DNA from: Schmidtea polychroa
Taxonomy: Eukaryota
NCBI GenBank assembly: GCA_044892525.1
Contig: CM097885.1
Coordinates: 2,172,001-2,236,000, forward strand
Direction: 5' to 3'
Length of the DNA stretch: 64,000 bases
Shown one piece after another: positions 8,178 to 55,813 of the stretch. A program made the translations under genes and the position numbers. Within the stretch, counting starts at the first letter, position 1. Every line of letters begins with the position of its first letter. A model generated the notes under the pieces. It saw nothing but the letters and a program-made list of their open reading frames with translations, was not told where the DNA came from and made no database searches.

Positions 8178-36980
<28,803 letters not shown>

Positions 36981-37025: not shown

Positions 37026-39027
37026 CAGTTTAAATCATTTAGGAAGCACAAATAATAAAAAAATAAAACCCTTACTCAAGCAATCATAAAATGCATGCAC
37101 AAACAATATAGATACAGTCCACACATCCACAAACAATATAGATACAGTCCACACACCAACAAACAATATAGATACAGTCCAGGCATCAACAAACAATATA
37201 GATACAGTCCAGGCATCCACAAACAATATAGATACAGTCCACACACCAACAAACAATATAGATACAGTCCAGGCATCCACAAACAATATAGATACAGTCC
37301 ACACACCAACAAACAATATAGATACAGTCCAGGCATCAACAAACAATATAGATACAGTCCACACATCAACAAACAATATAGATACAGTCCAGGCATCCAC
37401 AAACAATATAGATACAGTCCAGGCATCCACAAACAATATAGATACAGTCCACACACCAATAAACAATATAGATACAGTCCAGGCATCAACAAACAATATA
37501 GATACAGTCCACACATCAACAAACAATATAGATACAGTCCAGGCATCCACAAACAATATAGATACAGTCCAGGCATCCACAAACAATATAGATACAGTCC
37601 ACACACCAACAAACAATATAGATACAGTCCAGGCATCAACAAACAATATAGATACAGTCCACACACCAACAAACAATATAGATACAGTCCAGGCATCAAC
37701 AAACAATATAGATACAGTCCACACACCAACAAACAATATAGATACAGTCCACACATCAACAAACAATATAGATACAGTCCACACATCAACAAACAATATA
37801 GATACAGTCCAGGCATCCACAAACAATATAGATACAGTCCAGGCATCCACAAACAATATAGATACAGTCCACACACCAACAAACAATATAGATACAGTCC
37901 ACACATCAACAAACAATATAGATACAGTCCACACACCAACAAACAATATAGATACAGTCCACACATCAACAAACAATATAGATACAGTCCAGGCATCCAC
38001 AAACAATATAGATACAGTCCACACACCAACAAACAATATAGATACAGTCCAGGCATCAACAAACAATATAGATACAGTCCAGGCATCCACAAACAATATA
38101 GATACAGTCCAGGCATCCACAAACAATATAGATACAGTCCACACACCAACAAACAATATAGATACAGTCCACACATCAACAAACAATATAGATACAGTCC
38201 AGGCATCCACAAACAATATAGATACAGTCCACACACCAACAAACAATATAGATACAGTCCAGGCATCAACAAACAATATAGATACAGTCCAGGCATCCAC
38301 AAACAATATAGATACAGTCCAGGCATCCACAAACAATATAGATACAGTCCACACACCAACAAACAATATAGATACAGTCCACACATCAACAAACAATATA
38401 GATACAGTCCACACATCAACAAACAATATAGATACAGTCCACACATCAACAAACAATAAAAATCAATTATTCACTCCATTTTCTGAATTTCATTTCATTA
38501 ATTTATTTCTCTATTTCATATCGGTTTAAATATTATTATTTTCATTTTTTATAATAGTAAGCAGCAGTAAGTTTTAAATTTACCGCGCAAATATTTTATC
38601 TGTAAACAAAGATTCGAGATCTCTGTTATGAATTACATCTAGAACCAGAACATTGGTATTAATATTCATGTGGGCTCTATATATTATTAGAATGAGTTTA
38701 TTTAAACAAAGATTCATATTTCGCGCAATAATATTAGCATATGAACAAATACATTCGACATCTCCATTGAAAACTATTAAGGAAAGTTTAAAGTCTCGTT
38801 AAAATGTCTCAAATTTTCGATGAACTGTCATAAATAAATAGGATGAAAATATTTCAAAGTCCATTCGGACATCACCGAATTTTTGAAAATTATCGATTGA
38901 TTTTACATTTTCTTAATTCCTGGAAGAACTTATAAACTTTTCGAGGATTTTATTTTTGAGTTTTCTTAGTTACATCAAGACGCAAATCTTTTATGAAGAA
39001 TGCCTCGACTAATTATGTCGCGTTCCC
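37026..39027 (-). mobile_element. Inverted second copy of the 30860-31840 element with an expanded array
   Basis: 38460-39027 is the near-identical reverse complement of 30860-31430; 37026-37100 mirrors 31768-31840. Confidence 0.9.
37101..38457 (+). repeat. 30-bp minisatellite, 45 units: AAACAATATAGATACAGTCC plus a variant 10-mer
   Basis: 10-mer variants ACACATCAAC, AGGCATCCAC, ACACACCAAC, AGGCATCAAC recur. Confidence 0.98.
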
Positions 39028-39142: not shown

Positions 39143-40295
39143 AGTAGTAAGATGTGTCACCTCCAGGACATGTCACCTCCAGGACACATATATATAAGTA
39201 GGTCAAGTTAAAATTAAGTAGATCAAGTTAAAATTATGTAGGTCACGACTATATAGGTATTAAAATATGTAGGTCAAGTTACTTTAAATATATGTTACCT
39301 CCAGGACACTATATAAATAAATAAGTCAAATTAAGTAGGTCACGACTATATAGTTTATAAAAAATATGTAGATCAAGTTATTTTTAACATGTATCCCTAT
39401 AATATATACATCATTCAAAAGATATTTGAGAGTAGAGTACAATGATCATACCTTCAAAGGTGTATGGTGAATCCCTAACCTTCAAAAGGTGCAAAACCCT
39501 CGAATTTTTTCAAACTCTATAATACATGTCATTCAAAAGGTAATTGAGATGTGAGTATGATGGTCATACAATCAAAGGTGTATGGTGAGTCCTTCACCTT
39601 CAAAGGGTCAAAAAATTTCGAATTTTTTCAAACTTTATAATATATATACATCATTCAAAAGGTATTTGAGAGTAGAGTGTGATGGTCAAACCTTCAAAGA
39701 TGTATGGTGAGTCCTTACCCTCAAGTGTCAAAAACTTTGATTTTTATTCAAACTGTAAATTGATCATTTCAACAAATCTTTCAATCCCCAAAATAAATTT
39801 CCCAACTCAAAAATTTCCCAAATTTTAAAAATTCCCAAAAACAATTTTCCCAACTCAAATTTTTTCAAAAATTAAAAAGTCCCAAAAATGAAATTCCCCA
39901 AATTTCCCAACTCAAAATTTTTCAAATTTTAAAAAGTTTTCAAAACTATTTTCCCAAATTTTCCAACTAAATAGTAAAAGAATGTTTTACAATTTTTTTT
40001 TTCCTCGAATACATCAAACCAAAAATTTAACAAGGTTCGTCACACAAATCTAATTTTGAAATCAAACAAATGAATTTAATAAAAATTAAAATCATCGACA
40101 TACACAACAGCCGTTCGCCCGCCCGCCCGCCGCCGCCCGCCCCGAAGGGGCTGGCGCGGTAGTTTGTAAATTTGGTTTAGTTTGAATATTATTTTGAGTA
40201 TTAATAACAAAGGTAAAGAAATAAATGTTTATTAAATGTATATAGTATGATACTCATTAATATACATTGAACATGCTTTACATTTGCGAACATTT
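39143..40295 (+). repeat. Left terminal inverted repeat (a further segment, 40855-40911, also matches the right end)
   Basis: Reverse complement of ~54144-55389; contains 16-bp ATGTCACCTCCAGGAC repeats, three ~120-bp subrepeats and a GC island. Confidence 0.95.
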
Positions 40296-40789
40296 GAATC
40301 ATGGCATTTAGAACATACAATTACATGTCCGCAAGGTAAAAACAAAACCGATACTTGATTTTCTTTACAAATGTAACAAGTTAAATACATTTTCCTACCA
40401 TCATTGAGTTTTTTCCTTAGCTTATTTTCAATCAATTCGGATTTCGATATCCATTCATAAATCAATCTACTACTATATTCTGGTTCCAGCCTTAAATCCA
40501 TACAATTCCAAAAGCATTCATTCAATGAATCATTATCTACTATTGCTTTGTCTAAATGCATCAAATAAATCGATAACTTCAAAATGCATTTATTGTAATT
40601 AAATCAATCAATCAAATATCCAATGGAGGAATGTTTGAAAATTTCTAAAATTTTTATGGTTTCCTTTTCAGTGAGAGTATCATAATTGTTCATAAAATCT
40701 TCAACGGTGCAGTTTAAAAACTTGAATGATCTCGTGGTCATCAGTAATTTCTTAATAAATTTATGAAAATACTTATATTCTGCACACAT
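40232..40789 (-). pseudogene. Polinton IAP-type C3HC4 RING protein (putative E3 ligase) with one in-frame TGA
   Basis: ORFs 40604-40789 and 40232-40582 share a frame (GYLID*FNYNKCILKL). C-terminal CYICKENQVSVLFLPCGHVIVCSKC..KCKACSMYINEYHTIYI. No BIR seen. Confidence 0.8.
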
Positions 40790-41149
40790 TTATAAAAGAT
40801 ACATTAAAACAACTCATTTATTAAACAAGAAAATAATTTAAAATCAATAATGGTAATTTTAAGGATTATCTTCGATAGATTTTATTGAATAATGGTTCAT
40901 TAAAAAGGTCTTGAAGAGCTCTATCCAATGGTTATATATTTGAAGATATAATGTTTGTGCACAATATAGTAAGTATTATTATTTTTATTATTATTTTTAT
41001 TAACAAACTACATTCTAATAAAATACTTTTACACATCAAATTATTAAAAAAAAAAAAAAAAAGAAAACCGATAATTATAAAACGAAAAAGAGACTTTACA
41101 ATAATTTCTATTTTACAAAAATTCAAACAAGTCCGATCACAGAATTAAA

Positions 41150-44100
41150 TTAATCTTGTAGATGTTGATTGATGAGATCGGGATCTGCTCCTGATTGAAT
41201 ATCATTATCGTCATTATCAATGACATCAACCCCTAAATAATGACCATATGCAAAACTAGAGTTTTTCTCTACCCAAGCTCTTTTATCATCATGATTAGTT
41301 AAAGCAATCTTTGAGTTTTTAAAGGTAAAAAGCTGATGATTTCGGGTTCCTATTCTAGTCTGAGGTACAGAAATAACTGTGTTGTTGTTGTAACAGTCTA
41401 AATAAGATTGATGTTTTATATCTGTACCTGGTAATTTTACGCCCTTAGCTCTCATAGTAGATTTATTTCCTAAAAGACTGTAGCACTTTGGTCGCAAGAA
41501 AACCCACTCACTATATCCTACACCCTTACTCTCATCCTTAAACTTTCCTATAACTGAGTCGAGTCTCCTAGAATATAAAGGATGAGAGGGATCATAATTT
41601 GAGGTGTCTAACAAGTCATCCGAAATCATCGCTGGCAAAAGAACGTCAAGCTTTACATTTTTGACCTCTAAGAAGAAACTATCGGTATCACCCGCAACTA
41701 TATTTATATCACAGTTAAACTGACTCCTATATTTTGATAATTCTATGTACTGTAATTGATACATCCTTAGTTTGGATAAATCCAGCACTGATTGTCCGAT
41801 GTAGCTGGGTCTATCCAAACATATAGACTCCTTATTGAGATGTACACCAAAAAGATCATCATCAATTTTGATGGTTTTTCTAAATGATGGTTTTGATGAA
41901 TATGTAATTAATTTTTCCGCGGAATTACATAGTCGTAAATTTAATCTCTTCTTAAGGTTTTCAACGGATTTACCGTACAAGCTATTATTATACAATTTGA
42001 ATAAATCTCTGTACAGTTCACTGCTTGCTTCAGCTCTTAGCTGTGTATTTTTATTTATATAATTTTTAAAAATCGGTGCTTGCTTGAATTTTGTAGCTCT
42101 ATGGATGTGTACAACTTTGGCACCAAGAGACAAATAAAGCTTGAGAAGCCTCCAATGAAGAACATGGTTCTTCTTTGGCCAATGCGTGAGCATCAACTTC
42201 TCAACTTTCGAACCAGGCGGGCACATTTTCTCAGGAGCAAGAGGAAAGTCATTTAAGAAATCATGAAAAATTTCTGGAATATCTATATCCACTTCTATGG
42301 TATAACCATAGGGAAGGATTTCAATGTCAGCATTCATGCACTCAAGCAATACATCATTCAATCCATCATACACCCAAGTGAAATCAGCAAAAGGAAGATT
42401 TTGGCTAAGAGCCCAACCATACAGATTATTTATATCAATATATAATAATTCTGTATTATCAGAAGCAGCAACGTAATGTTTGTTAACAAATGTTAACCCA
42501 CCACGTATTCCTCCTTCGTAAAAATTGAACATTTCCATGTCCTGTAAAAGTTCTATAGGCTCAGTTAATGTCATAAGCGCTGAGGCCCATGACATACCCG
42601 GAATACCATAAAAGTTTAGAGGTTCTAGACCATTGTATGCAATGGCCTTGGCACGGAATTGTTGGAAATAGTCCGCAAGGAGGAATACATCCAATTTTTG
42701 ATAAGTTAACATATAGTCAGCCAATTTAGTACAACGTTGTTGAGTCCAAATAAGTTGAGCCTTAGCATACTCATCTTCAGTAACACCAGACCAAATAGGA
42801 GGCAATTCATAAGTGGTTTCAAGTACATCCAAATCAGTCGCATAATCATAAGGAAATATGGCTTTAGCATCTATTATTAACCTATCAAAAACCGACGAAG
42901 TCAAAGGAAGATCAGTTAGAGTTTTTACAGCCTTAGCCAAAGAACAATTAACAAATTGTATGCTGTCGATAAAACGAACAGCTAATTTTTTAATGTGAAC
43001 AATCATCGAGATAAATTTCTCTGTGCTTGTGGGTATTATATTCAAATTCCAAGAAGGAAAGCCATTGAGACCATATTTTAAAATATGGTGTAAGTCGTAG
43101 CCTCGTAAATTATGAAATACAATCGGCAGCTGTTTATAAATTCTGCGAGCCATATTACATTTCCTACAGGCTGCACCGAGATAATTACCAGTAAAATGGT
43201 CATGATCTCGAACAGCAAGGGATAAAACCTTCTTGCAAAGATAGCAGTTCCTACAAGATTTGAATTGTCGTTCCTCAGCAAAAGTCATAGGTCCTAACCG
43301 TTTTTTCCCTTCAAGCTCATAATAAGGTAGGACAATTGTGACAGCAATTTCCTCTACTTTTTTAAGAAATTGAGGTATACAATCAGGACCATAAAACTCG
43401 TAATACGATTTTCTATTGTTAAGATTATTTATTAATAAAAGACCTGCTGAAATAGGTAAATGTATTTGATGATGTTTAACATCTTTAGGTAAAACCGATT
43501 CAAAATCGGCATAAATAACAAAGGGTGGGGTGATTCTCTTTGAATGATTTTGAAACTCTAAATATTTATTTTCGGGTAAAGTGTAAAGGGTTGTACCCGT
43601 TTGATTTTTACTGCATAGGGCCACATGTTTAGTGAAAGCATTGTCTAATCGAAAACCGTTAAGACAATGTGGGCACCATTTGCATCTTATTTGAATACTA
43701 CAGTCATTATTACGATGGCAGTTCATTAAACGTGTAATGTTGGTCACTGCGGTGTAATGATAATTATCCTTATTTTCCAAGAGTAATAAATAAATTGGAG
43801 TACCGATAGTAACCGTTGATCTGTGAATTATACTTAAGTGGGGGTGTTTAAAAACATAGTCATTAGGAACCTGATCATCATCAACTATCACAGTAGGGGT
43901 ATAAGCCAGAACATTTATGGCAAGATTTAAGTCTAAATTTTTCTTTTCGAATTTAGGTATATTACACAATTTCATCGGACAATCCGTGACTTCATTGTAA
44001 TTAAGAATATTTAAAAGATTTTCATATTTTGAAACTCTTTCAGGGTGGCTACCTATTTCATCTTTTTTCAAGAGCGCGAGAATACTATAAAGGAAACACT

Positions 44101-45227
44101 TATGATCCTTATTTTTAACATTAATAATTGCTCCTTTAGATTTCAAATCTGCGGGTGTACGAATGTAACTATGACCAGATAGGCGACAAATAGGAGCAAA
44201 TTTAGTCAGAATGAAATCAATCTCTAAGATATTAATTACTCTCCAGCCACTACCTAAATAGGTAAACTTTTCAATTTTTTCGTTTAACTTATTAACTCCC
44301 TCAATTAAAAAGTTATCCGAAAAGATCTCCGCGTTATTTGAAAAGTAGTTGTCACGGATTTCCCCATCTTTTTCAAATCTTATAAGAATAGCGAATTGAA
44401 TTTTGACGCTACCCATGTTATTTATTTCAGATGTTAACTTTTCAGTGATTTTATCCGTTATTATAATTTTAATTAATTGTGAATCGGCAATATTAAATCG
44501 AATAGTTCGAATGGCGCCATTTAAATTTGATTCTATTATCGGCTCAATCGCTAAAGATGATCCACCTATTTGATTTATAGTATTTATAGTATTATCATTA
44601 TTTATATTTTCATTTATAGCATTTATAATATCATGATTTATAGTATATGTAATATTATTACATTCGTCATCACTGAGTAGAATGACTTCATTTTTAATAA
44701 TTTCGTCGTCACTGATCTCAATAACTTCAGTTTTTATAATTTTATTTTTAATTTTAGACACCCTATGTTCAGCAGGTCTTTTATTAGATTTCTTTTTTGT
44801 GTTATTATTTAAAATATTTACAATTTCAATGTTATTCTTATTTATTATTTTAAACAGTTCTTGTTTATTTGTTTTGAAAGAATTTAAGTGCTGAGAATGT
44901 TGACTATAAAATTCCTTATACCTTACACTCTGGGAAGTTTTGCATATGGGGCAAATAAAAAAGTTGATGCCATTAAAAGGTTGGCGATAATATTTCTTCA
45001 TATTTTTGTGGCATTTATTGTCATGACCCATAGACGAATTACAATATTTAGGATAAAATTTGCCTAATAAAAGTTAAATAATTATTTATTGAATGAAAAT
45101 GTATTATTTATTTAATAATAATAATAATAATAATAATAAATGTAATTTAATCTTTCATTTAAAATTTGTCTATAATATTATCAACTATAAAATAATTAGT
45201 TAATGTTAAATAATGCTAAGTTATTAA

Positions 45228-45317
<90 letters not shown>

Positions 45318-45950
45318 TACTACTACTATTACAATTACTATTATAATTATTACTATTACAATTACTATTTTAATGATAACTGAAATAATTTACATAAAGT
45401 TATATTTACATTATATTTACATAAAATCTATATTATTATTAAGTTATTAATTAATTAAAAACTATATATTAATAAAATGAAACATACATTTTGATTCGTT
45501 ATTCGAAACTGAGTCCCCAATAGGGATGGGAGCATTCAAATTATACGCAACGGAGGTATCCACTACTGCGGCATTTATTATTGGAAAATTCTTGTTATGA
45601 GAAACAGAAGATTCTAAAATGTTAATGGTAATACAATTTTAATTAAACTAATAAATTACCATTTTGGAATATGTTTGAAATATCTAATATGTCGTCATTT
45701 TCGGTAATTGCGGCCCAATCACCAAAATAATTGTCTAAATAATAAAGATAATAATAATAATTAAAGTATTTATAATAATTATAAATATACCATTTCCATC
45801 ATTTCCAGAACCTAATCGCCTATTGAAGACTGACGAGTTAACGGTACGAGTTTCTAATTGTAAATTTAATTATTTAATATAAATAAATAAATAAAAATCC
45901 TTACCATTTCTCGAAAGAACCACATTGATTTTAGTATTAATTGATGACAT
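41150..45950 (-). CDS. Protein-primed family B DNA polymerase (pPolB), 5 exons, ~1407 aa
   Basis: Exo motifs IYADFES, FHNLRGYD, YQKLDV; pol motifs YIDINNLYGWA, KLYNNSLYGK, GDTDSF; EndoVII-like insert CYLC..RDHDHFTG..GAACRKCN. Exons 45950-45905, 45853-45791, 45734-45660, 45613-45488 and 45063-41150 splice in frame via GT-AG. Confidence 0.95.
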
Positions 45951-46114
45951 TTTAAAATTGTAATAAAATAATTATGATGAAATTTGTATTACAATTGTTT
46001 ATAACGTGATAATATGCCTTTGTTAATCATGCACGGAGCATGCACCGTTCATGACGGACTTTGTTATTATTGTAATAATATAAAACATAATAATAATTAT
46101 AAAAATAATAAAAC

Positions 46115-46155
<41 letters not shown>

Positions 46156-46206
46156 ACATAATAATAATTATAAAATAATAAAAACACATTTTTATAAAAA
46201 CATTTA

Positions 46207-46582
46207 TTATTTAATAGACATAAGCCATCCTAAACAATGTTGTCCGCACGTACGAGTTAAAGGGTGTTGATACATTGTTTTATTATATACAATAGGTTTG
46301 CCCATTGTTTGTAGTTTCGAAACCAATAAAGCAGGATAATAGAAACCCATAGGATCGAATACATGTATCTTATCTGGTTTCATATAGATTGCAATCCAAT
46401 GCTCTCCGCCGAGATGAGATGAATGGGTATTGACGATTATGGCTTGATTATTTTTCAAAAATGGTATTTTATCGAGAGGAAAACTCCTAAAAATTCATTT
46501 CCTAATATTTGTTTTCCAATTCGATTAACCTGAACAGAACTATTTTAATAAATTAAACAGTATAAAAAACAACTTACTCCAT
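46207..46582 (-). CDS. Adenain-like cysteine maturation protease; one intron (46540-46577) and a 1-nt frameshift at 46480-46483
   Basis: Reconstructed MDSVQVNRIGKQILGNEFLGVFPLDKIP..IVNT..GEHWIAIY..FDPMG..YQHPLTRTCGQHC (catalytic H, D, Q, C). An in-frame upstream ATG lies at 46609. Confidence 0.9.
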
Positions 46583-46609
46583 GACAACTTTCTGTATTTC
46601 TGTATACAT

Positions 46610-47831
46610 TTATACCAGAACCGTTCTATTTGCAGTAATTTGAACTTCATTTTCAAATACTCCATATATTATAACATGCACAGGTTCTGTAATAGCTTTT
46701 GCAAACTTTATATCTAATCGTAAATTTCCATTTTGAGGTAATTGACTCTGATTCAAATCAAAATCTGGGGCCAAAACAAATGTAAAGAATGGATATTTGG
46801 TTTTGAATTCTTCAAGAGTTATGCCGCAATTCAAATTTTTATCTAAATATCCCATATTTCTAACAATACTCTGCATATATGTAGCACAGTAATTGTCACT
46901 ATCGAAATCTTGAGTATATGTTTCTCGATAATCAGTATTTTTCGACAAAGTTAGAGATGTAACACCAAAGGTTTTGAAAATTGAGCTTGAGGCACTATAT
47001 GAACCATTATATTGTGCTTCACCTTGAAATGTTACCAGAATAAAGTTTGGCATTCTTCTATCTCCAAATATTTGTTCCTTATAGAAGGAAGAAGCACCTT
47101 TGGCTATTGCAAATGAAACAATTTCTTTTTTTTTCAGAGGATAGATTGCATGCTTAGAATTAAGACCCAACTGATGACCTGCTAATACCGACGGATCAAC
47201 TCGAACTCTTCTTACTAGTAATTTTGCATCAACTAATTGACATATTGGTTGACCAGCACCACTAGTTAATGATAAAGAAGAATCGGTTCTTTTCAGTCTA
47301 ATGTGTACATTGACTCCTGGAAGTAAATATTTTGGTTGATCCATAAAATCGAGTTGTAATGATGAACACATGGTGAAAATCTTTGAGCCTTTAATCCATT
47401 TTTTCCGTTCGTCATCACTTGCTGCATAACCCATAGGAGTAAGACATGTATTTTTGGTGTCGGTATTATAATTTAAAAGTTTCTATTATCGCCTTGTGGA
47501 TATATGTATTGTTGCCACCTTCAATCTTGATATTATTAAATCCAAGAATAGCATCTTTAAAAAGTGTATGAAACAAAAAATTATTAGGTATTGTAGCATC
47601 AGCATCACCCAAAGCCTTTTTATCTTTATCTATAACCTTGATTTGAACAGTCAATAAAGTATCATTCAAATCTAAATATTCTGTTTGAGAACCATTGATG
47701 TAAAATTCTACATCATTTCTACTATCGGTAATTGAATTCATAGGAAAAACTTCCTCAAATGCCCCAAATTCTATTACAGCCTGGGGCGATGGTCTATCAA
47801 ATATGCATAATTCAGATTTACCACAAATCAT
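46610..47831 (-). CDS. Double jelly-roll major capsid protein (PY) with a frameshift at ~47475-47478
   Basis: KSELCIF N-terminus, VEFYING..YLDLNDT, NTYIHKAIIET/LNY, DFMDQPKYLLPGV, GNLRLDIKFAKA..VIIYGVFENEVQI. The two ORFs join at a T-run. Confidence 0.92.
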
Positions 47832-48196
47832 TTTGCAAATATAGTTCCATGTCCTTTCATTCGTTTGTTTATACGTGATATTCCATGTCTTTTACGTTTT
47901 GGAGCTGGAGCTGGAGCTGGAGGTTTTTCTTTTTGAAACATACCTGCAACCCCGGGTAAAACTTTCCCTAATTCAGCTAAAGCATTTGATTTTAGAGATG
48001 GTAATATTTTCTGTTCATTCATAATAACATCTTTTGCAGTTTTCATACCAAAACTACCAATACGTTTAAGAATAGGCAATGCAAATCTACCAATTGTTCT
48101 CAACCATCCCGATCCGTACTGTTTACCAATAAAATATGGTAATTCACCGCCAGATTGGCTATCACTATACATACTAATAATATCAGAATTAGCCAT
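47828..48196 (-). CDS. Conserved Polinton virion protein (PW/gasderminX-type) with amphipathic helix
   Basis: QSGGELPYFIGKQYGSGWLRTIGRFALPILKRIG motif, basic C-terminus, located between mCP and MCP. Confidence 0.75.
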   Translation of the reverse strand: MANSDIISMYSDSQSGGELPYFIGKQYGSGWLRTIGRFALPILKRIGSFGMKTAKDVIMNEQKILPSLKSNALAELGKVLPGVAGMFQKEKPPAPAPAPKRKRHGISRINKRMKGHGTIFAK

Positions 48197-49232
48197 CTAC
48201 TTTACGAAAATGTAATGTCAAATGAGTTTTTGAACCTTTTGGAAAGTTTATAAGTTTTCCACTATCATCACGAATATTTATTTCTATATTGTTTATACAT
48301 GAACTTGCTATTGGTAAATACATGGGATTATCGATATTTATATTGACAACTTCATCATGTTCATATTTTCCAATCCATACCGATTTCAAAAGAGGAACAC
48401 TGGAATCACCAACAATTATGGGTTCGATAATGTTAGTATATATGAACATTTGTTGATGATGTTCTAGTATTCTTGGTTTGCGTATACCAGTCGATTTTTC
48501 TCTATATTTTTGCTTATCTAATCCAAGTGAATTTGCCAAATTTTTATCAAATGTAACTTCGCAAATATCCTCATTCAAACTGAAGGTAAACATCAAATCT
48601 TTCACAATTTCCAAATTTTTAAATATGTGTGAACAATTGAACTTTAAATATTTAAGTAATACATCAAGTTTATCAAAATATAATTCATCAGCAAAGGTGA
48701 ATGATTCTTCAACTTCATCATTATACGACACAGATATTTTGATTTCTTCTTTCACTATACTGTTTGCTTCAAATAGATTAAAACGTAATAAATACTCGGT
48801 CTCCATAACAATATTTTTCAGCTTATTGCAACCCATTCGTTTGGCATCTTCAATAGTTTCGAATGTTATTGTAAATGGTTTAAAATCACAACTGATATTT
48901 AATCCATCCTTGTAAAATATATAGCAATGCGAATCTAATATTTGGTTCGGAATATGATATGTTTTATCATAATTACTGATAATAAAGATACCGCTACATG
49001 TTTTCACAATATTCCTTTTGAAATCAATCTTACATTGACTATAAAATGGGAATGTGTTGTACACGAATGTAAAATCTTGCAGTGCAACTTCCCAGTCACC
49101 ATTTAAAGAAATCGGATTCTGGAGATTGACCATAAATTTACTGGCTTGATTGTCTAGATGAATTAATGGGCAACTATTGCTCGGTAAAATAGTATAAAAA
49201 TTCACTTTACTAGGTCCTTTGCTGATATCCAT
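48189..49232 (-). CDS. Single jelly-roll minor capsid/penton protein (PX)
   Basis: FYTILPSN..DNQASKF..LQNPISLNGDWEVAL; MFIYTNIIEPIIVGDSSVPLL; IEINIRDDSGKLINF..LTLHFRK. Start at ATG 49232 (or 49256). Confidence 0.92.
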   Translation of the reverse strand: MDISKGPSKVNFYTILPSNSCPLIHLDNQASKFMVNLQNPISLNGDWEVALQDFTFVYNTFPFYSQCKIDFKRNIVKTCSGIFIISNYDKTYHIPNQILDSHCYIFYKDGLNISCDFKPFTITFETIEDAKRMGCNKLKNIVMETEYLLRFNLFEANSIVKEEIKISVSYNDEVEESFTFADELYFDKLDVLLKYLKFNCSHIFKNLEIVKDLMFTFSLNEDICEVTFDKNLANSLGLDKQKYREKSTGIRKPRILEHHQQMFIYTNIIEPIIVGDSSVPLLKSVWIGKYEHDEVVNINIDNPMYLPIASSCINNIEINIRDDSGKLINFPKGSKTHLTLHFRKVDG

Positions 49233-49831
49233 GACGGGTTTTGATAACCATGCCATTTGACATAGTATTGTTTATCCTTGCCGACCTTTTTAGTTTTCAA
49301 TATTATTTGAATTCTAAATACCTTTGGAGGAGGAATGACTTGTAATTCCTGCCCATAAAATTTCCCTTGTACAATATTATTATCACTGTCTTTGATGACA
49401 TACATTACAGGATTCTGTTTAGTATTTATTTTTGAAATTACAAAGACTTCATCACTCCAATTTGTATCAAAATTTTTAATAAATGGTGATGCACTAATTT
49501 TACTAATTCTAACATGATCACCGACTTTATATTTAGGTTTTGCAATTTTTACAGATTTCTTAGAATAGAATGTTTTTGATGTAATATCAACCGGTCTTAA
49601 TCCATTCAGTCCTCGATGTGATGAATGATTATAACTTGTTATTATTTTCGGTAAAGCATTTACCCATTTTTTATTACCTTGATGCACGAACAATTTCTTT
49701 AATCTATCTCTCAATGTTCGATTAAATCTTTCAACATGGGCAGCTTTGTATTGAGAATGTACCGAGTAGTGATTTATTTTCAGTTTATCGAGGATTAGCT
49801 TAACTTTGCTATTGTAGAATTCTTTACCTAA

Positions 49832-49914
<83 letters not shown>

Positions 49915-50302
49915 CCAAATCTGTTTGCAAGTTATTAGGATGTCCATCTTTAAATAAAATATTAATTGCCTTGGACATTTCATCTGCAGATTTTGCCTTG
50001 ACTGGTATTGCTCGTGCAAACCTGCTGGTTACATTAATACATGTTAAAATATATTTATTCCCATTGTTAATTTTCGAATAGGGTATCATCTCCATCAAAT
50101 CCATTTGCCATAAATCGTCAATACCAAATGTTTTATAGGCTCTTGTTGGAAATCTTTTCCGCATTGGTTTGTTCAAACTGTACGCAAGCTGATCTGATAA
50201 CCACTTCTGGGTTTCTTTTTTCGAATTCGGAACTCTTTTCTTTAATTTTGCCACTCCATCGAAACCGGCTTCGTCTTCTGGGTTCGTCCAAATCTTCTCC
50301 AT
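49202..50302 (-). CDS. Retroviral-like DDE integrase with C-terminal chromodomain; 87-nt intron 49828-49914 (337 aa spliced)
   Basis: WQMDL, LQTDLG|KEF, VERFNRTL, YNHSSHRGL, YYVKWHGY..SWI. The poly-Ile insert is a GT..AG (ATT)n intron. Confidence 0.95.
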
Positions 50303-50360
50303 TACAGCAAGAAGATTTAAAATTAAAATTTAAATTAGGTAATGAAGGATTAGCACCCAT
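50133..50360 (-). CDS. Small overprinted ORF with N-myristoylation motif (hypothetical)
   Basis: MGANPS (G2, S6), SSCC and basic RRRSRFR; ATG 3 nt after the upstream stop; overlaps the integrase in another frame. Confidence 0.45.
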   Translation of the reverse strand: MGANPSLPNLNFNFKSSCCNGEDLDEPRRRSRFRWSGKIKEKSSEFEKRNPEVVIRSACVQFEQTNAEKISNKSL

Positions 50361-50363
50361 TGT

Positions 50364-50897
50364 TTATGATTGATTTCCTACAACTCCACCTAATAATGAT
50401 AATGCCAGAGGTATCAATGCACCAATAAATCCACCTTGTTGTTTATATATAATTTTCCTCATTTGCTTACGATTTTTATTATTTACTAATGATAACAAAG
50501 TTTTCCTATGTTTGCTCAATAAATGCTTTTTTGATTTACTGATTTTAATTTTGCCTTTGACTACTTTAAGTATAATATTGAGTAAATCATTGACAACAAA
50601 ATTTGGGAATGATTGCAATATATTCATTCTTTTCATACTCGGGGCCTTTAACAATGCATTAAAAAATGGAAAACTGCGATGATTTTTAATTACTTTTTTA
50701 CCGGCTTTACGGGTTTTACGGGTTTCACGTTTAGGTTTAGGATTTTTCGAAATAAGATTCATTGCAGAGAAATTTTCAGTTACAAGTTTTTTAGATGGTG
50801 TATAACTAGTTGTTGGTGGAACCTTTTGAACTTTAATACTCTTTTTAATACTTTTTCTTAATTTCCTAATATTTTTCACCCTTGCTTTTAGAAACAT
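50364..50897 (-). CDS. Lys-rich core protein with adenovirus pX/Mu-like C-terminus
   Basis: Highly basic body ending KQQGGFIGALIPLALSLLGG, resembling adenovirus pX GG/ILPLLIP. Confidence 0.75.
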   Translation of the reverse strand: MFLKARVKNIRKLRKSIKKSIKVQKVPPTTSYTPSKKLVTENFSAMNLISKNPKPKRETRKTRKAGKKVIKNHRSFPFFNALLKAPSMKRMNILQSFPNFVVNDLLNIILKVVKGKIKISKSKKHLLSKHRKTLLSLVNNKNRKQMRKIIYKQQGGFIGALIPLALSLLGGVVGNQS

Positions 50898-50915
50898 TAT
50901 TATTCATAGAGGTTT

Positions 50916-51542
50916 TCAACTTTGTTTATAAACCATGGCACCTTTTGGGTTGAAAATATCTGTTTTTACTCGTAAATCATCGGGACATTGTTGTGTGAAA
51001 TCAAGAAATATATATCCATGAGGTATTTTTGTAGCATCTTGAAATGCACTGATAAGAAAATTACGATTGTTAGGGTATGCTTGACGTGCAAGAAAATCAA
51101 TCACTGTTGCATCTCTAGGATTCTTGAAAATAACTAAATATTGTACATTTAAATTACGTGTTCGATGTGCACCACCTTGATGAAATAGATTTTGAGTTAT
51201 AAAAATAACAGTTACACCAACGTGTCTACTGATTTTGGTAAATAAATTATTGAAATTCTTTTCTTTATTAGCTTCTTGATACAAGTCATCAATAATTATG
51301 ACATCCCCCTTCTTTAGTCTACTGGACCAATTTTTATCAAATCCCTCTACTATTTTCATATTTTTCAATTTACAGAAACTTGATTGAGTCAATCCGTGTT
51401 CTTGATCAGCACCTCGATGCCAATACATTTTGTTAAATTTTGATTCAAATAAATGTGATTTTAGTAATTTGCAAACAAACAAAGTTTTGCCGCTACCACT
51501 TGGTCCGACTATTTGATATACAGCATCATTTCTTAGTTCCAT
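50916..51542 (-). CDS. A32/FtsK-HerA family DNA-packaging ATPase
   Basis: Walker A GPSGSGKT, Walker B IIIDD, SRH..VIFITQNLF, YLVIFKNPRD. Confidence 0.95.
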   Translation of the reverse strand: MELRNDAVYQIVGPSGSGKTLFVCKLLKSHLFESKFNKMYWHRGADQEHGLTQSSFCKLKNMKIVEGFDKNWSSRLKKGDVIIIDDLYQEANKEKNFNNLFTKISRHVGVTVIFITQNLFHQGGAHRTRNLNVQYLVIFKNPRDATVIDFLARQAYPNNRNFLISAFQDATKIPHGYIFLDFTQQCPDDLRVKTDIFNPKGAMVYKQS

Positions 51543-51666
51543 TTTTAATATTTATTTAAAAATTAATTTTGTTTATATCGTAAAGAATAAATTGATTTAA
51601 TTACTCTATAATATAACATATATATATATATATATATATACTTGATTTTTTAAATATTCAGTAGAA

Positions 51667-52172
51667 ATGTTGACAAATATTAATTATAGAGGTCGTGTGT
51701 CTTTGGAAACTGTTGGTATGATGAATTTCCCCAAGTGTAAACCACAACAATATGTTGACAAAACTGGAAAATATACTATTATATTTTTCAAAAATGGTAA
51801 ATGTCGTATAATGGGTTGTAAGAAGCCTATCGAATTCGAGAATTTGCAATATAATATCAAAGATATTCAAGTCTTACTATAGCTACCAAGGTTGAACAAT
51901 CTATTAATTTGAATAATTTAGCAAAGTTATTAGATGGAGATTGTATATATGAGCCTGAATTATTTCCCGCTCTGCGTTATACAAAATATAATCCACTATG
52001 TGTTAATATATTTTCGAGTGGTAAAATAGTTGTACTAGGTATTAAAAATTTAGATTTTCATACTATTGTTGAAGGAATTATAAACGATGTAAAGGATTTG
52101 ATTGGATCTTTAACAATTTCTTCAAATATAAGTAACGAGGATTTGCTTGAATATTTATTCAACAATGATTGA
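51667..52172 (+). CDS. TATA-binding-protein (TBP)-like protein, ~168 aa, with a frameshift at ~51870
   Basis: Repeat 1: LTNIN..TIIFFKNGKCRIMGCK. Repeat 2: IQSLTIATKVEQSINLNNLA..YEPELFPALRY..PLCVNIFSSGKIVVLGIK. Compare TBP IQNMV..IRLEGL..YEPELFPGLIY..LLIFVSGKVVLTGAK. Confidence 0.88.
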
Positions 52173-52533
52173 ACATGAAGGTAACTGTTTTTATTTTAAA
52201 TTTACTGATTTTTGTTTAGAAACTATACTAAAAATTTTGATTGATAAAATTGAAGATTTTTATCCGAATTTGAACAATTCCTTAATGTATTGTGCTCCAG
52301 AAGTTGTGTTTTACAAAATTTATGAAATAACTGGAATAAATGTAATAGATTTAATTCATATGGATCATGCTACGATTACATGTTATACCGATGATGTTGA
52401 AAATTGTGATTTTTGTAAAAATAATATGCAGAATACTTGTGGGGATGATAGTTGTACATGTTTTGTAAATCTACAGAAACGAGAAATAATTCATGCATTA
52501 CTTGTGGAATTGCGAAAAAATGTATTGTTGTAA
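52165..52533 (+). CDS. Hypothetical Cys/His-rich protein, possible Zn binder
   Basis: ATG 52165 overlaps the TBP-like 3' end; H..TC..CDFC..C...SCTC cluster; AATAAA right after the stop. Confidence 0.6.
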   Translation: MIEHEGNCFYFKFTDFCLETILKILIDKIEDFYPNLNNSLMYCAPEVVFYKIYEITGINVIDLIHMDHATITCYTDDVENCDFCKNNMQNTCGDDSCTCFVNLQKREIIHALLVELRKNVLL

Positions 52534-52735
52534 TAAAATATAATTATATTTGTTTTGTGATAACCTTAATTAACCTATAATATTTCTTTGTGTACAATAA
52601 ATCATTTCAGACTTTGTTATTTAGCATAAAATGAACTAGTTGATCACGTTTTGATCATGCCTGTCACTTGAAACTTGTTTACAATGAAATTAGTATAAAA
52701 TATCTGGTTCAAATTATTAAATATTATAACTACAA

Positions 52736-53330
52736 ATGGATAATCAAATTACAGGTTTGTTGTCGTTTACACATATTCCATTTAGTAGTTTTTTAATCTA
52801 GGAGTTTTGAAGAGAAAAAATGCAGATGCCGCTCAGGAATTCGGAAAAAGGAAATTTAAAGAAGCGACATTATCCACGGAAACCTTGGTCAATGTTCGAG
52901 TGGATACAAAAAAGCCAGTCGAATTCATGCAATACAAACTAAATTATTTGTATTGTCCAATTTCCTATACATTTAAGGTAAGTTTCTATAAATTATTTTG
53001 GATTTTATTATTATTATTATTTATTGTTAGGAACCAGTAACTCTGGAAAAATGTTTCTACAATGTGAGACTTTCCAAAATCAAGTTTCACGACAAGATGC
53101 TATTGGGACAATTATTTCAGAGGATCAATGAAAATATTGAATTTGATGATGAAGATATGTTCATTAGAAACGATTTGGATATGATTCCCAATGGTGGTAA
53201 GATGAGCAAAATAACCTGCATGGTTACCATATTAATTCAAGGGTATAATGTAAGCAGAGACCGAATCAAACCAATTTGGAAAATTATAAAAGCCGAAGAT
53301 AAGTTTGAAGAGGAACATTGTTCATGTTAA
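52736..53330 (+). CDS. Spliced hypothetical protein, putative OB-fold ssDNA-binding protein; exons 52736-52754, 52802-52977, 53031-53330
   Basis: In-frame GT-AG splicing; TATAAAA at 52694; KRK motifs (NLS-like); C-terminal VTILIQGYNV..IKPIWKIIKA plus acidic tail. Confidence 0.6.
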
Positions 53331-53402
53331 ATTTATTTAATACATCTTTATTAGTGTTTTGGTGTTTTTAAATCATTGAAAATAACTAAAGTTTTAAATT
53401 TA

Positions 53403-53790
53403 TTAATCTTCAATACAATCTCTTTTCATTATATTTTCAACAATATGATCAATACAATTAGTAAAAACAATAGATTCATCTTCTTGTTTAGATTCATTTG
53501 GTAATTTATCTGTTGTAGAATTCTCAATACATGACTTAAGTTCTTCACTAGGCAAATCAGTATATTCATCTTCTTGCTGGGAAATATTTTCAGATTCATA
53601 TGACATATCATCTTCATTAATTTCATCGTCTGAATACGGCCATTTTAATTTCTCTGGAACATTCATAAATTCTCTAATTTTTACATTAGATATTTCCTCT
53701 AATTTTTCAATCAAAAAATTGATTATATATGCTAAATAAAAAAAAAAGAATTAATAAACATAAAATTCATATTTTACCTTTTTCCGACAT
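53403..53790 (-). CDS. Spliced acidic hypothetical protein; exons 53790-53778 and 53731-53403
   Basis: MSEK|AYIINFLIEKLEE.. in frame across a 46-nt GT-AG intron; D/E-rich. Confidence 0.6.
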
Positions 53791-54078
53791 GGTTGAAAAT
53801 AATTAAAATGAAAAAATAATTATGTTTATACTATTATTCAAAAGTAACAAGATGATCGATAGATAGATTATAAGAAAATTAGATATTTCAACACGATACA
53901 TATAATAAAAAGACAAGCAAACTTGCAATGATATTTAACGTTTCAGTTTTTACATTTTTTAAAATATTTATTTCAATTATTTCAACAACACAAAAAGTGT
54001 CAATTTTTTTACTAATTAATTTTCAGCCTAACCTACAACTTTTCACAAAAATCCAAAAAAAAAAAAAAAAAAAAAAAG

Positions 54079-55389
54079 AGACCTTTTTAATGAACCATTA
54101 TTCAATATAATCTATCGAAAGTAATCCTTAAAATTCAAATTTAAAATGTTCGCAAATGTAAAGCATGTTCAATGTATATTAATGAGTATCATACTATAAA
54201 CATTTATTTCTTTACCTTTGTTATTAATACTTTGAATATTGTAAATAATAAAACTATGTATCAAATAATAATATTCAAACTAAACCAAATTTACAAACTA
54301 CCGCGCCAGCCTCTTCGGGGCGGGTGGCGGACGGGCGGCGGGCGGCGGGCGGCGGGCGGCGGGCGGCGGGCGGCGGGCGGCGGGCGGCGGGCGGCGGGCG
54401 GCGGGCGGGCGGGCGGGCGGCGGTTGTGTATGTCGATGATTTTAATTTTTATTAAATGCATTTGTTTGATTTCAAAATTAGATTTGTGTGACGAACCTTG
54501 TTAAATTTTTGGTTTGATGTATTCGAGGAAAAAAAAAAATTGTAAAATATTCTTTTACTATTTAGTTGGAAAATTTGGGAAAATAGTTTTGAAAACTTTT
54601 TAAAATTTGAAAAATTTTGAGTTGGGAAATTTGGGGAATTTCATTTTTGGGACTTTTTAATTTTTGAAAAAATTTGAGTTGGGAAAATTGTTTTTGGGAA
54701 TTTTTAAAATTTGGGAAATTTATTTTGGGGATTGAAAGATTTGTTGAAATGATCAATTTACAGTTTGAATAAAAATCAAAGTTTTTGACACTTGAGGGTA
54801 AGGACTCACCATACATCTTTGAAGGTTTGACCATCACACTCTACTCTCAAATACCTTTTGAATGATGTATATATATTATAAAGTTTGAAAAAATTCGAAA
54901 TTTTTTGACCCTTTGAAGGTGAAGGACTCACCATACACCTTTGATTGTATGACCATCATACTCACATCTCAATTACCTTTTGAATGACATGTATTATAGA
55001 GTTTGAAAAAATTCGAGGGTTTTGCACCTTTTGAAGGTTAGGGATTCACCATACACCTTTGAAGGTATGATCATTGTACTTTACTCTCAAATATCTTTTG
55101 AATGATGTATATATTATAGGGATACATGTTAAAAATAACTTGATCTACATATTTTTTATAAACTATATAGTCGTGACCTACTTAATTTGACTTATTTATT
55201 TATATAGTGTCCTGGAGGTAACATTTATTTAAAGTAACTTGACCTACATATTTTAATACCTATATAGTCGTGACCTACATAATTTTAACTTGATCTACTT
55301 AATTTTAACTTGACCTACTTATATATATGTGTCCTGGAGGTGACATGTCCTGGAGGTGACATGTCCTGGAGGTGACACATCTTACTACT
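54079..55389 (-). repeat. Right terminal inverted repeat with internal deletion and expanded (GGGCGGC)n
   Basis: 54144-55389 mirrors 39143-40295; 54079-54135 mirrors 40855-40911. Confidence 0.95.
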
Positions 55390-55392
55390 TAC

Positions 55393-55813
55393 AAACAATG
55401 CTTAGCAATACACAAACAATGCGTAGCAATACACAAACAATGCGTAGCAATACACAAACAATGCTTAGCAATACACAAACAATGCTTAGCAATACACAAA
55501 CAATGCTTAGCAATACACAAACAATGCTTAGCAATACACAAACAATGCGTAGCAATACACAAACAATGCGTAGCAATACACAAACAATGCGTAGCAATAC
55601 ACAAACAATGCGTAGCAATACACAAACAATGCGTAGCAATACACAAACAATGCTTAGCAATACACAAACAATGCTTAGCAATACACAAACAATGCTTAGC
55701 AATACACAAACAATGCTTAGCAATACACAAACAATATAGATACAGTCCAGACATCCACAAACAATAAAAATAAATTATTCACTCCATTTTCTGAATTTCA
55801 TTTCATTTATTTA
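55393..55813 (+). repeat. 21-bp minisatellite AAACAATGC(T/G)TAGCAATACAC (16 units) grading into one 30-bp unit and its usual flank
   Basis: After the array, AAACAATATAGATACAGTCC...TTATTCACTCCATTTTCTGAATTTCATTTC matches 38431-38500. Confidence 0.95.

Follow-up and report, generated by a model that had tools for sequence, protein, structure and literature searches.

A candidate core-promoter box ahead of the core genes of a Maverick element that encodes a TBP-like protein

How do Maverick/Polinton elements switch on their genes? We know of no account of this in the literature searched, and to our knowledge virions have gone unseen for most of these elements. The question is raised by a 64-kb window of Schmidtea polychroa DNA (GCA_044892525.1, contig CM097885.1, 2,172,001 to 2,236,000), to whose coordinates all positions below refer. 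An adintovirus-like Maverick/Polinton of 16.2 kb (39155-55361), recognised by its terminal inverted repeats (TIRs), integrase and polymerase, lies in this window and carries both a gene for a protein resembling the TATA-binding protein (TBP) and a short box, TATAAACAA, repeated ahead of its genes. A sequence-only reading of the locus had taken this box for the cognate promoter of the viral TBP. The promoter half of that claim is upheld by enrichment and spacing; the cognate half, which rests on co-occurrence, did not gain the same standing. We consider the 8-mer TATAAACA very probably a conserved core-promoter element, occupying the TATA position ahead of the core genes in a clade of Mavericks that encode a TBP. 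Among the explanations of how it is read, recognition by the element's own TBP is the best at hand, and we cautiously lean towards it.

Boxes ahead of the genes of the element

The minus strand encodes, in order, an acidic open reading frame (ORF), the packaging ATPase (Pox_A32), a pX-like gene, a small ORF beginning MGANPS that overlaps the start of the integrase, the rve/chromo integrase itself, the minor capsid protein (mCP, the penton), an ORF named PW, the major capsid protein (MCP), an adenain-type protease, a long polymerase gene and a RING-finger gene. Capsid proteins, packaging ATPase and protease make up a virion module. The boxes accompany the core block at 41150..51542 (ATPase, pX-like, small ORF with integrase, mCP, PW, MCP, protease and the protein-primed DNA polymerase, pPolB), whose gene order is the same in related elements. 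On the plus strand, the TBP-like gene (51667-52172) stands head to head with the ATPase, and two more genes are found on that strand.

Nine exact copies of TATAAACAA are present in the window, all on the minus strand. Six fall within 45995-51577, and the remaining ~48 kb has three. The box at 51569..51577 lies 26 nucleotides (nt) from the ATPase ATG (51542) in the non-coding stretch between the divergent TBP and ATPase genes, and 21 of 24 ATPase orthologues have NATAAACA or TATAAACN within 100 nt upstream. The next box, at 50922..50930, is 24 nt from the pX-like ATG (50897) and is encoded as Y-K-Q at the ATPase C-terminus. Since this Y-K-Q is conserved in both clades of relatives, the promoter of the next gene appears to be written into the last codons of the ATPase. 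The MGANPS ORF has a box at 50439..50447, 78 nt from its ATG (50360), as well as a variant, CATAAACAA, that abuts this ATG (50360..50368, minus strand); in relatives, CATAAACA is found 24-25 nt ahead of the same type of small ORF. For PW, the box (48289..48297) lies 92 nt from the ATG (48196), inside the mCP codons C-I-N-N. Five of six PW orthologues have a box within 100 nt, and the gap from the 8-mer is 90-91 nt in 4/6 and 25 nt in one. The MCP box (47865..47873) is 33 nt from the ATG (47831), inside the PW codons R-I-N-K, and all nine MCP orthologues have a box within 100 nt upstream, exact in 6. The sixth box, at 45995..46003, is 44 nt from an ATG at 45950 that likely opens the first exon of the polymerase gene. 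All six positions and gaps agree with the sequence-only reading, as does its statement that several boxes sit inside the codons of the upstream gene: four exact boxes do so (YKQ twice, RINK and CINN).

The near-matches it had listed were all present too. A variant GATAAACAA at 49268..49276 on the minus strand precedes the mCP gene by 11 nt (ATG 49256); the 35 nt first given for it is the distance to the second, next in-frame Met. In a related locus, L055, GATAAACA stands 12 nt ahead of the mCP gene. The acidic ORF has TATAAACAT at 53822..53830 (minus strand), 31 nt from its ATG at 53789, which opens a short first exon followed by 53666-53403. The protease is preceded by TATAAAT (46608..46614, minus strand), which overlaps the MCP stop and lies ~25 nt from the ATG at 46582. 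This ATG opens a first exon of only 5 nt (ATGGA, followed by GTAAGT), and in L012 and L020 AATAAACA and GATAAACA are found 25-26 nt ahead of the equivalent mini-exon (ATGAA, followed by GTAAGT). The protease therefore seems box-less (0/10 exact) because its ATG belongs to a 5-nt mini-exon that an intron follows.

Four sequencing runs, none of them recorded as RNA, were aligned to the window as contigs; they showed no transcript starts and no sites at which many molecules begin or end. Two GT..AG introns of the minus strand, 45790-45735 and 45659-45614, are missing from a contig of run X1; both lie downstream of the box whose first T is at 46003. With two further predicted introns, a single frame runs on from the ATG at 45950 as far as the polymerase stop (41150), and three splice solutions give proteins of 1393-1407 amino acids (aa). 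Given this open spliced frame, the box at 45995..46003 probably serves the polymerase gene. The 5' region of that gene (45063-45905) comprises four small exons, two of its introns being those confirmed by the run X1 contig.

Could such a set of boxes be without regulatory role, a by-product of AT-richness and of the conserved peptides YKQ and INK/INN? Dinucleotide shuffles gave a mean of 0.33 boxes over 8,001 nt, or 0.52 over 14,527 nt, with maxima of 3 and 4, and none of 5000 reached six. TATAAACAA was the top non-repeat 9-mer of the minus strand at 45900-53900 (Poisson 2.6e-5 under an order-3 Markov model), a value that becomes ~0.19 after Bonferroni correction over the 7236 distinct 9-mers, so that the window count is weak when taken alone. 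The earlier estimate that six copies exceed chance thus holds against dinucleotide shuffles and is lost on correction. Enrichment over codon-preserving shuffles, to which the same reading had looked, was not significant: for the four in-ORF boxes, synonymous-codon shuffles had a mean of 2.25 and 158 of 2000 reached 4. Codon shuffles reproduce these boxes because Y-K-Q and I-N-K/N nearly force the box in AT-rich codon usage. Both the corrected count and the codon shuffles speak for a by-product. The signal is regained once position is considered: within the window, the box is present at all four compatible peptide sites that lie no more than 120 nt from an ORF end, but at just 2 of the 13 located further inside (p=0.006).

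Spacing, base preferences and gene classes among relatives

A scan of metagenome contigs with an alignment of the TBP-like protein found 179 relatives, the best 80 loci of which were analysed (given below by their L numbers where one is needed). Maverick core proteins were recognisable in 39 of the 80, often in the order seen in the window, and the ATPases of relatives were 25% to 76% identical to that of the window. Among ORFs of at least 60 aa, TATAAACA was the top enriched 8-mer at -60 to -10, found ahead of 81 of 607 against 6.57 expected. The top upstream word was ATAAACA in the distant clade (42/261 vs 4.35 expected) and TATAAAC in an intermediate set (16/124 vs 1.77 expected). The box is kept among elements whose proteins are only 25-60% identical. 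After de-duplication to 62 clusters at 90% identity, the first T of the box lay 30-49 nt ahead of an ORF ATG in 64 of 131 boxes, and in 7 of 131 in the antisense (reverse-complement) control. Of the loci of at least 3 kb, 23/33 had one or more correctly spaced boxes. TATAAACA was also biased to the gene strand over the other strand (9 to 1 in L020, 8 to 0 in L047 and 9 to 1 in L068). Together with the dinucleotide shuffles, the checks on enrichment and position that had been called for came out in favour of a promoter.

The reading-frame context of the boxes bears on the by-product explanation once more. Of the 80 boxes with correct spacing, window included, 52 either lie in non-coding DNA or overlap a stop codon; a further 17 are read in phase 0 (YKQ) and the remaining 11 in phase 2 (xINx). 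Boxes that are non-coding or lie in either of two reading frames place the signal in the DNA. Likewise, box-compatible peptide sites in relatives carry the box in 41 of 64 cases near an ORF end and in 13 of 79 internally (p=5e-9). The exact 8-mer TATAAACA is 19.7-fold enriched in a slot 30-42 nt ahead of ATGs (51 of its 131 occurrences), and the motif is the top upstream k-mer in three separate subsets. A by-product of composition and peptides is already close to refuted by these results, and we find it hardly credible.

A second explanation takes the motif for a polyadenylation signal of the gene upstream, whether as its sole or as an additional role; in these compact genomes it often falls at or just past the gene end. 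As many as 28 of the 80 boxes fall within the final codons of the ORF ahead of them, many of the rest come shortly after a stop, and AUAAAC resembles AAUAAA. In addition, a contig of run X3 has a 17-nt T run at 50872, which would be a minus-strand poly(A) end 58 nt past the first T of the box at 50930. That end, however, is 25-34 nt past an AATAAT, a more usual distance. For the boxes beginning at 51577 and 53830 there is no gene further upstream on the same strand. It is the distance to the following ATG that is tight; relative to the stop of the preceding gene, the boxes vary in position (non-coding, or one of two coding phases). A polyadenylation signal is, on this evidence, very improbable.

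Base preferences were read in the same slot of 30-42 nt ahead of ATGs. Position 1 was T in 51, C in 13, A in 4 and G in 2 cases; position 2 was A only (G 0/24); positions 3-6 were essentially invariant; position 7 was C in 51 and T in 9, with A in 0/55; and position 8 was A in 51, G in 9, T in 3 and C in none. At position 9, the 80 boxes had A in 70% and T in 24%. The motif can be summarised as YATAAA[C>T]R-W.

These preferences bear on a third explanation, raised as an alternative by the sequence-only reading: that ATAAACA is a forkhead (FOX) site through which host FOX proteins activate the viral genes. Forkhead factors favour GTAAACA, accept G or A at the first position of their RYAAAYA core and require A at the last. 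ATAAACA fits this core, the box has C or T at position 7 and usually A at position 9, all as for a forkhead site; the exact 9-mer also occurs in the accessible text of papers on FoxF/Biniou targets. The base usage in the slot nevertheless departs from forkhead preferences. G at position 2, which would give TGTAAACA, was found in 0/24 cases, position 8 accepts G (9 cases), and T is preferred over A at position 1 (51 vs 4) even though AATAAACA is common elsewhere (48 occurrences). The strict spacing and fixed orientation (64/131 vs 7/131 in antisense) are those of a core element, and no other box occupies the TATA position of these promoters. Forkhead activation is accordingly disfavoured, and we judge it improbable.

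The box marks some gene families and is missing from one. In a loose form at the right distance it precedes 19 of 24 ATPase and 17 of 20 pX genes, and in the form [TCG]ATAAAC[AG] it precedes 6 of 7 small ORFs before the integrase. Two unnamed families, of 28 and 15 members, have it in 16/27 and 10/12, respectively. The TBP gene has it in 0/73, and the difference from ATPase and pX combined (36/44) is strong (Fisher p=1e-22).

The TBP-like protein and the reading of the box

What would read such a box? The TBP-like gene at 51667..52172 (plus strand) encodes two repeats. Its frame is intact, at 170 aa, in all eight other genomic copies that were compared and is broken near 51868-51882 in the window copy. 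The C-terminal repeat (51909-52172) scored 37.7 bits against Pfam TBP (PF00352; cut-off 22.9) and matched solved TBPs by sequence with E-values of 6e-15 to 1e-7. The N-terminal part (51667-51882) scored 14.1 bits, under the same cut-off, and had no match among solved TBPs; the searches against solved structures aligned residues 55-147 only. This is the intact C-terminal repeat with a diverged N-terminal repeat that had been described from the sequence alone. An AlphaFold model (pLDDT 93.6, pTM 0.80) has a shortened N-terminal repeat without the long second helix. Foldseek hits 1-44 to this model were all TBPs, with E-values of 0.001 or less and TM scores of 0.58-0.67 over 167-178 aligned columns. 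As modelled, then, the whole chain folds as a TBP saddle built from both repeats.

Residue comparisons, read by eye from alignments, showed which TBP features are kept. The stirrup EPELFPAL is conserved in the family alignment, and three of the four kinking Phe positions are retained (F41, F102 and F118); the stirrup of cellular TBP contacts TFIIB. Arg47 and Met49 are invariant in the N-terminal repeat, at positions where cellular TBPs have Val and Thr, and in the C-terminal repeat Ser and Leu replace the Asn and Thr of cellular TBPs. Like cellular and archaeal TBPs (1cdw, 1ytb, 2z8u, 1mp9), the viral protein has the two-repeat saddle, the EPELFP stirrup and the three kinking Phe. Unlike them, it has a short N-terminal repeat without the long second helix, the invariant Arg and Met, and no N-terminal tail. 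Cellular TBP sets its N-terminal repeat over the 3' half of the TATA box; here the N-terminal repeat differs, and so does the 3' half of the box that it would read.

The protein is not confined to this genome. With the 170-aa protein of copy L001 as query, 107 short TBP-like proteins were found. Most have 144-164 aa, they are 33-94% identical, and every one comes from a metagenome or a raw assembly; within this family, both halves of the protein are well conserved. A scan of a viral contig collection with the TBP alignment also found a distant TBP-like gene on a 44.7-kb contig, L009 (33% identity; tblastn matched the C-terminal repeat only). Upstream of the ORFs of L009, TATATAA-type words are the most frequent, and there is no TATAAACA box. 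Scans of the same collection with the ATPase, the MCP or the ATPase alignment found no relatives.

The main rival to reading by the viral protein is a genuine core promoter that host TBP/TFIID, or a TBP-related factor of the host, recognises as a weak variant of TATA. The viral TBP-like protein would then do something else, such as competing with host TBP or acting at other sites. The canonical TATA box, TATAWAWR at about -31 to -24, is bound by TBP within TFIID. The box resembles it at positions 1-6 and 8, is orientation-specific and stands as far from the ATG as do the canonical TATA boxes ahead of the TBP genes of the same elements, all of which would suit a host factor. It departs from the consensus at position 7 alone, every other position fitting, and it is here that host TBP fares worse: among slot boxes with C, T or A at position 7, 51 of 60 have C, and A is found in 0/55.

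The promoters of the TBP genes themselves supply a second comparison. In the window, a candidate TBP-gene promoter (51618..51662, plus strand) consists of (TA)n at 51618-51640 followed by TCAGT at 51658-51662, with no TATAAACA box; the A of the TCAGT lies 7 nt ahead of the TBP ATG at 51667, in a canonical TATA-plus-initiator geometry. By pattern, canonical TATA occurs at 19/73 TBP genes. A number of 59 TBP upstream regions show TATATAAG, TATAAAAG or TATAAATA and then an initiator-like TCATT, TCACT or TCAGT, which lies ~25-30 nt past the TATA and a few bases ahead of the ATG. By this short TATA-to-ATG geometry, very short leaders would be normal in these elements. Box and ATG are equally far apart in the TATAAACA and canonical-TATA classes, but an initiator-like TCA[GTC]T is found behind 2 of 73 TATAAACA boxes against 21 of 68 canonical TATA boxes. 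This contrast suggests a different initiation complex at the two promoter classes and speaks against reading by host TBP.

Among the TBP genes without canonical TATA, a subgroup (L016, L023, L025, L027, L028, L010, L021 and L013) has TTGTTT(T/A)AATG(Y)ATTAAT ~55-60 nt upstream and ATCATAATT right before the ATG.

A third line of evidence came from relatives without the TBP gene. Prokaryote genome bins scanned with the ATPase alignment contained five stray Maverick contigs. One of these, L091, has a TBP gene by tblastn and profile search, and carries 2 TATAAACA in 3.8 kb. The other four (L090, L092, L093 and L094) have no TBP gene by the same searches and no TATAAACA in 30,920 nt. In an ATPase tree, both TBP-positive clades have boxes and the four TBP-less rows form the outgroup (support 90/75). 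Each of the two deep clades thus has both the box and the TBP gene, and the four TBP-less relatives have neither. This comparison, which the sequence-only reading had proposed, came out in its favour and speaks against reading by host TBP. The TBP-less Mavericks may use a different promoter system. Their best upstream 7-mer was GTCCGTC (7/83 ORFs vs 0.65 expected), and L090 alone also has ACTTCCG/CCGGAAG upstream; L093 ends just upstream of its ATPase.

Several observations weigh against a promoter dedicated to the viral TBP, alongside the corrected window count and the codon shuffles given above. All 80 metagenome loci were obtained via their TBP gene and are therefore unable to show a box without a TBP, and the ORF calls on which the spacing depends were naive, taking the first ATG and ignoring introns. 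The TBP-less comparison is a single contrast with one weakly supported clade (90/75) of four loci, three of which have a GC content of 0.51-0.56, so that composition confounds it. Canonical TATA is not significantly more frequent at TBP genes (19/73) than at ATPase and pX genes (8/44; p=0.37). In L018-L020 the TBP gene follows directly behind a box-bearing ORF, which fits poorly with a simple early-to-late cascade and favours host TBP, since the box must then fire before any viral TBP exists. The broken TBP frame of the window copy points the same way. In these three loci (1990-2869), the TBP start is 2 nt past a 142-aa ORF that is itself preceded by a TATAAACA box; TBP may there be produced from RNA started at this box, and the outcome would then be a feedback loop, not a simple cascade. 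With the preference for C at position 7, the lack of an initiator and the co-occurrence on the other side, reading by host TBP seems unlikely to us.

Reading by the element's own TBP is preferred because box and TBP gene co-occur over one phylogenetic contrast, and because the box is absent at the TBP genes and the initiator lacking behind the box. On the boxes, the pre-initiation complex would be nucleated by the 170-aa TBP-like protein, its conserved C-terminal repeat taking the TATA half and its remodelled N-terminal repeat the AACA half. RNA polymerase II would start ~30 nt past the box, leaving very short leaders. In many elements the TBP gene would be driven by canonical TATA plus initiator, giving a two-step programme in which host TFIID makes the viral TBP and the viral TBP turns on the core genes. 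With some reserve, we favour TATAAACAW as the shared core promoter of packaging, capsid, integrase and polymerase genes in Mavericks that have their own minimal TBP. More tentative, and in our view somewhat doubtful as a whole, is a self-contained two-tier RNA polymerase II programme shared by an entire clade of animal-associated Mavericks, in which host TFIID would make the TBP from its TATA-plus-initiator promoter, the repeat with Arg47 and Met49 would accept C:G at position 7, and complexes formed on TATAAACAW independently of an initiator would yield nearly leaderless core mRNAs.

How does such an arrangement compare with known systems? Virophages and polinton-like viruses have shared promoter motifs that match the late promoters of their giant-virus helpers, and thus also repeat one short motif before most genes of a small double-stranded DNA element. 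Those motifs serve the helper virus's own RNA polymerase in a cytoplasmic factory, whereas the Maverick has an RNA polymerase II-type factor and spliceosomal introns and lies in an animal-type genome. In working principle, the closest known system appears by analogy to be the late promoters of beta- and gamma-herpesviruses, whose TATT box is described in the accessible parts of the reports as read by a viral TBP mimic: ORF24 of Kaposi's sarcoma-associated herpesvirus, UL87 of human cytomegalovirus and BcRF1 of Epstein-Barr virus (PMC7498053, PMC8360532, PMC12529657). As those parts present it, a nuclear DNA virus that depends on host RNA polymerase II has a non-canonical box at the TATA position of some of its genes and brings its own TBP-like factor in a two-tier programme; on the Maverick side the factor's role and the two tiers are conjectural. 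The comparison is one of working principle only, since the boxes differ (TATAAACA and TATT) and the herpesvirus factor is a large remote mimic, whereas the Maverick factor has 170 aa and is a recognisable TBP by sequence (PF00352).

A TBP-like gene in adintovirus/Polinton-related elements has been indicated before. Starrett et al. 2021 (PMC8502044; preprint 10.1101/697771) placed a "TBP" label on maps of non-animal midsize linear double-stranded DNA viruses; in the accessible portion of that paper the label stands in figure legends only, and no promoter motif, link to gene classes or family is described. No such motif has been reported for Mavericks, Polintons or adintoviruses in the literature searched, which leaves out most subscription journals.

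The box and the element-encoded TBP offer an experimental handle on Maverick regulation, and the box also helps annotation by pointing to true start codons, mini-exons and gene boundaries. If the viral protein does read the box, it would provide a small case from nature of a TBP whose TATA specificity has changed, and the herpesvirus strategy of a viral TBP paired with a variant TATA box would have arisen separately in a much simpler virus lineage.

Other features of the element and its surroundings

Two further plus-strand genes have candidate promoters. A variant TATAAACGA at 52079..52087 lies 77 nt from an ATG at 52165, which opens a 122-aa ORF overlapping the TBP stop; TATAAACG is enriched upstream of the ORFs of relatives (16 vs 1.16 expected). 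Further downstream, a canonical TATAAAATA at 52694..52702, read by eye, is 42 nt from the ATG at 52736 of a predicted multi-exon gene with its end at 53330. This predicted gene is spanned by an unspliced contig of run X1 (52028-53747).

The element is bounded by inverted repeats of ~850 nt, a left TIR at 39155..40002 and a right TIR at 54530..55361. The arms pair as 39155-39822 with 54694-55361 (668 nt, 99%) and as 39811-40002 with 54530-54721. Pfam matches in the core block were Pox_A32 (ATPase, 29.4 bits; cut-off 22.8), Peptidase_C5 (protease, 26.9 bits; cut-off 21.3), rve and Chromo, the last two with scores under their cut-offs; the integrase is 33-58% identical to the integrases of related loci. 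The polymerase was not recognised by Pfam and matched the long polymerase ORFs of relatives by tblastn (31-53%), so that its family name, pPolB, is an assigned label with no library match behind it. MCP and mCP were named from their position and homology to relatives, not from a capsid fold.

The 781-Mb host genome holds at least 40 places with 100% identity to the ATPase region, 40 having been scored of 2902 candidates. Other genomic copies are 97.7-99.8% identical. Three of three boxes were kept in 8/8 copies, a retention that is little informative because the copies are so nearly identical. The MCP is split into 121 and 274 aa in the window copy and is a single 407-aa ORF in 8/8 other copies. 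The frame breaks of the window copy are those of the TBP-like gene (51868-51882) and of the MCP (47434-47466), and probably one in the protease at ~46479. The integrase is interrupted by an in-frame intron made of an (ATT)n microsatellite (49830-49920).

Gene order is conserved in L012 and L020, but orientation is not: there the TBP gene is parallel to the ATPase block and the polymerase is inverted. The window has the opposite arrangement, its TBP gene diverging from the ATPase and its polymerase running in the same direction as the block. Contigs of run X3 have poly(A)-like ends (T or A runs) at 44789, 47924, 49306, 50872, 53747 and 54539; each is a single contig and some adjoin genomic A runs, so that they are hints only.

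At the polymerase end of the element is the RING-finger (C3HC4) gene (40232-40561). Its last codons recur shortly inward of the right TIR (54172-54200), where a plus-strand ORF opens with the same residues. Just inside the right TIR, at 54290-54460, is a GC-rich tandem repeat (CCGCCCG-type; 9-mers 10-13x) in an element that is otherwise 30% GC. Minisatellites are found near both ends of the element, at 37035-38530 and 55356-55770. The first of these has a unit in common with a further minisatellite at 31357-31843, and the element may have inserted into or beside a minisatellite array.

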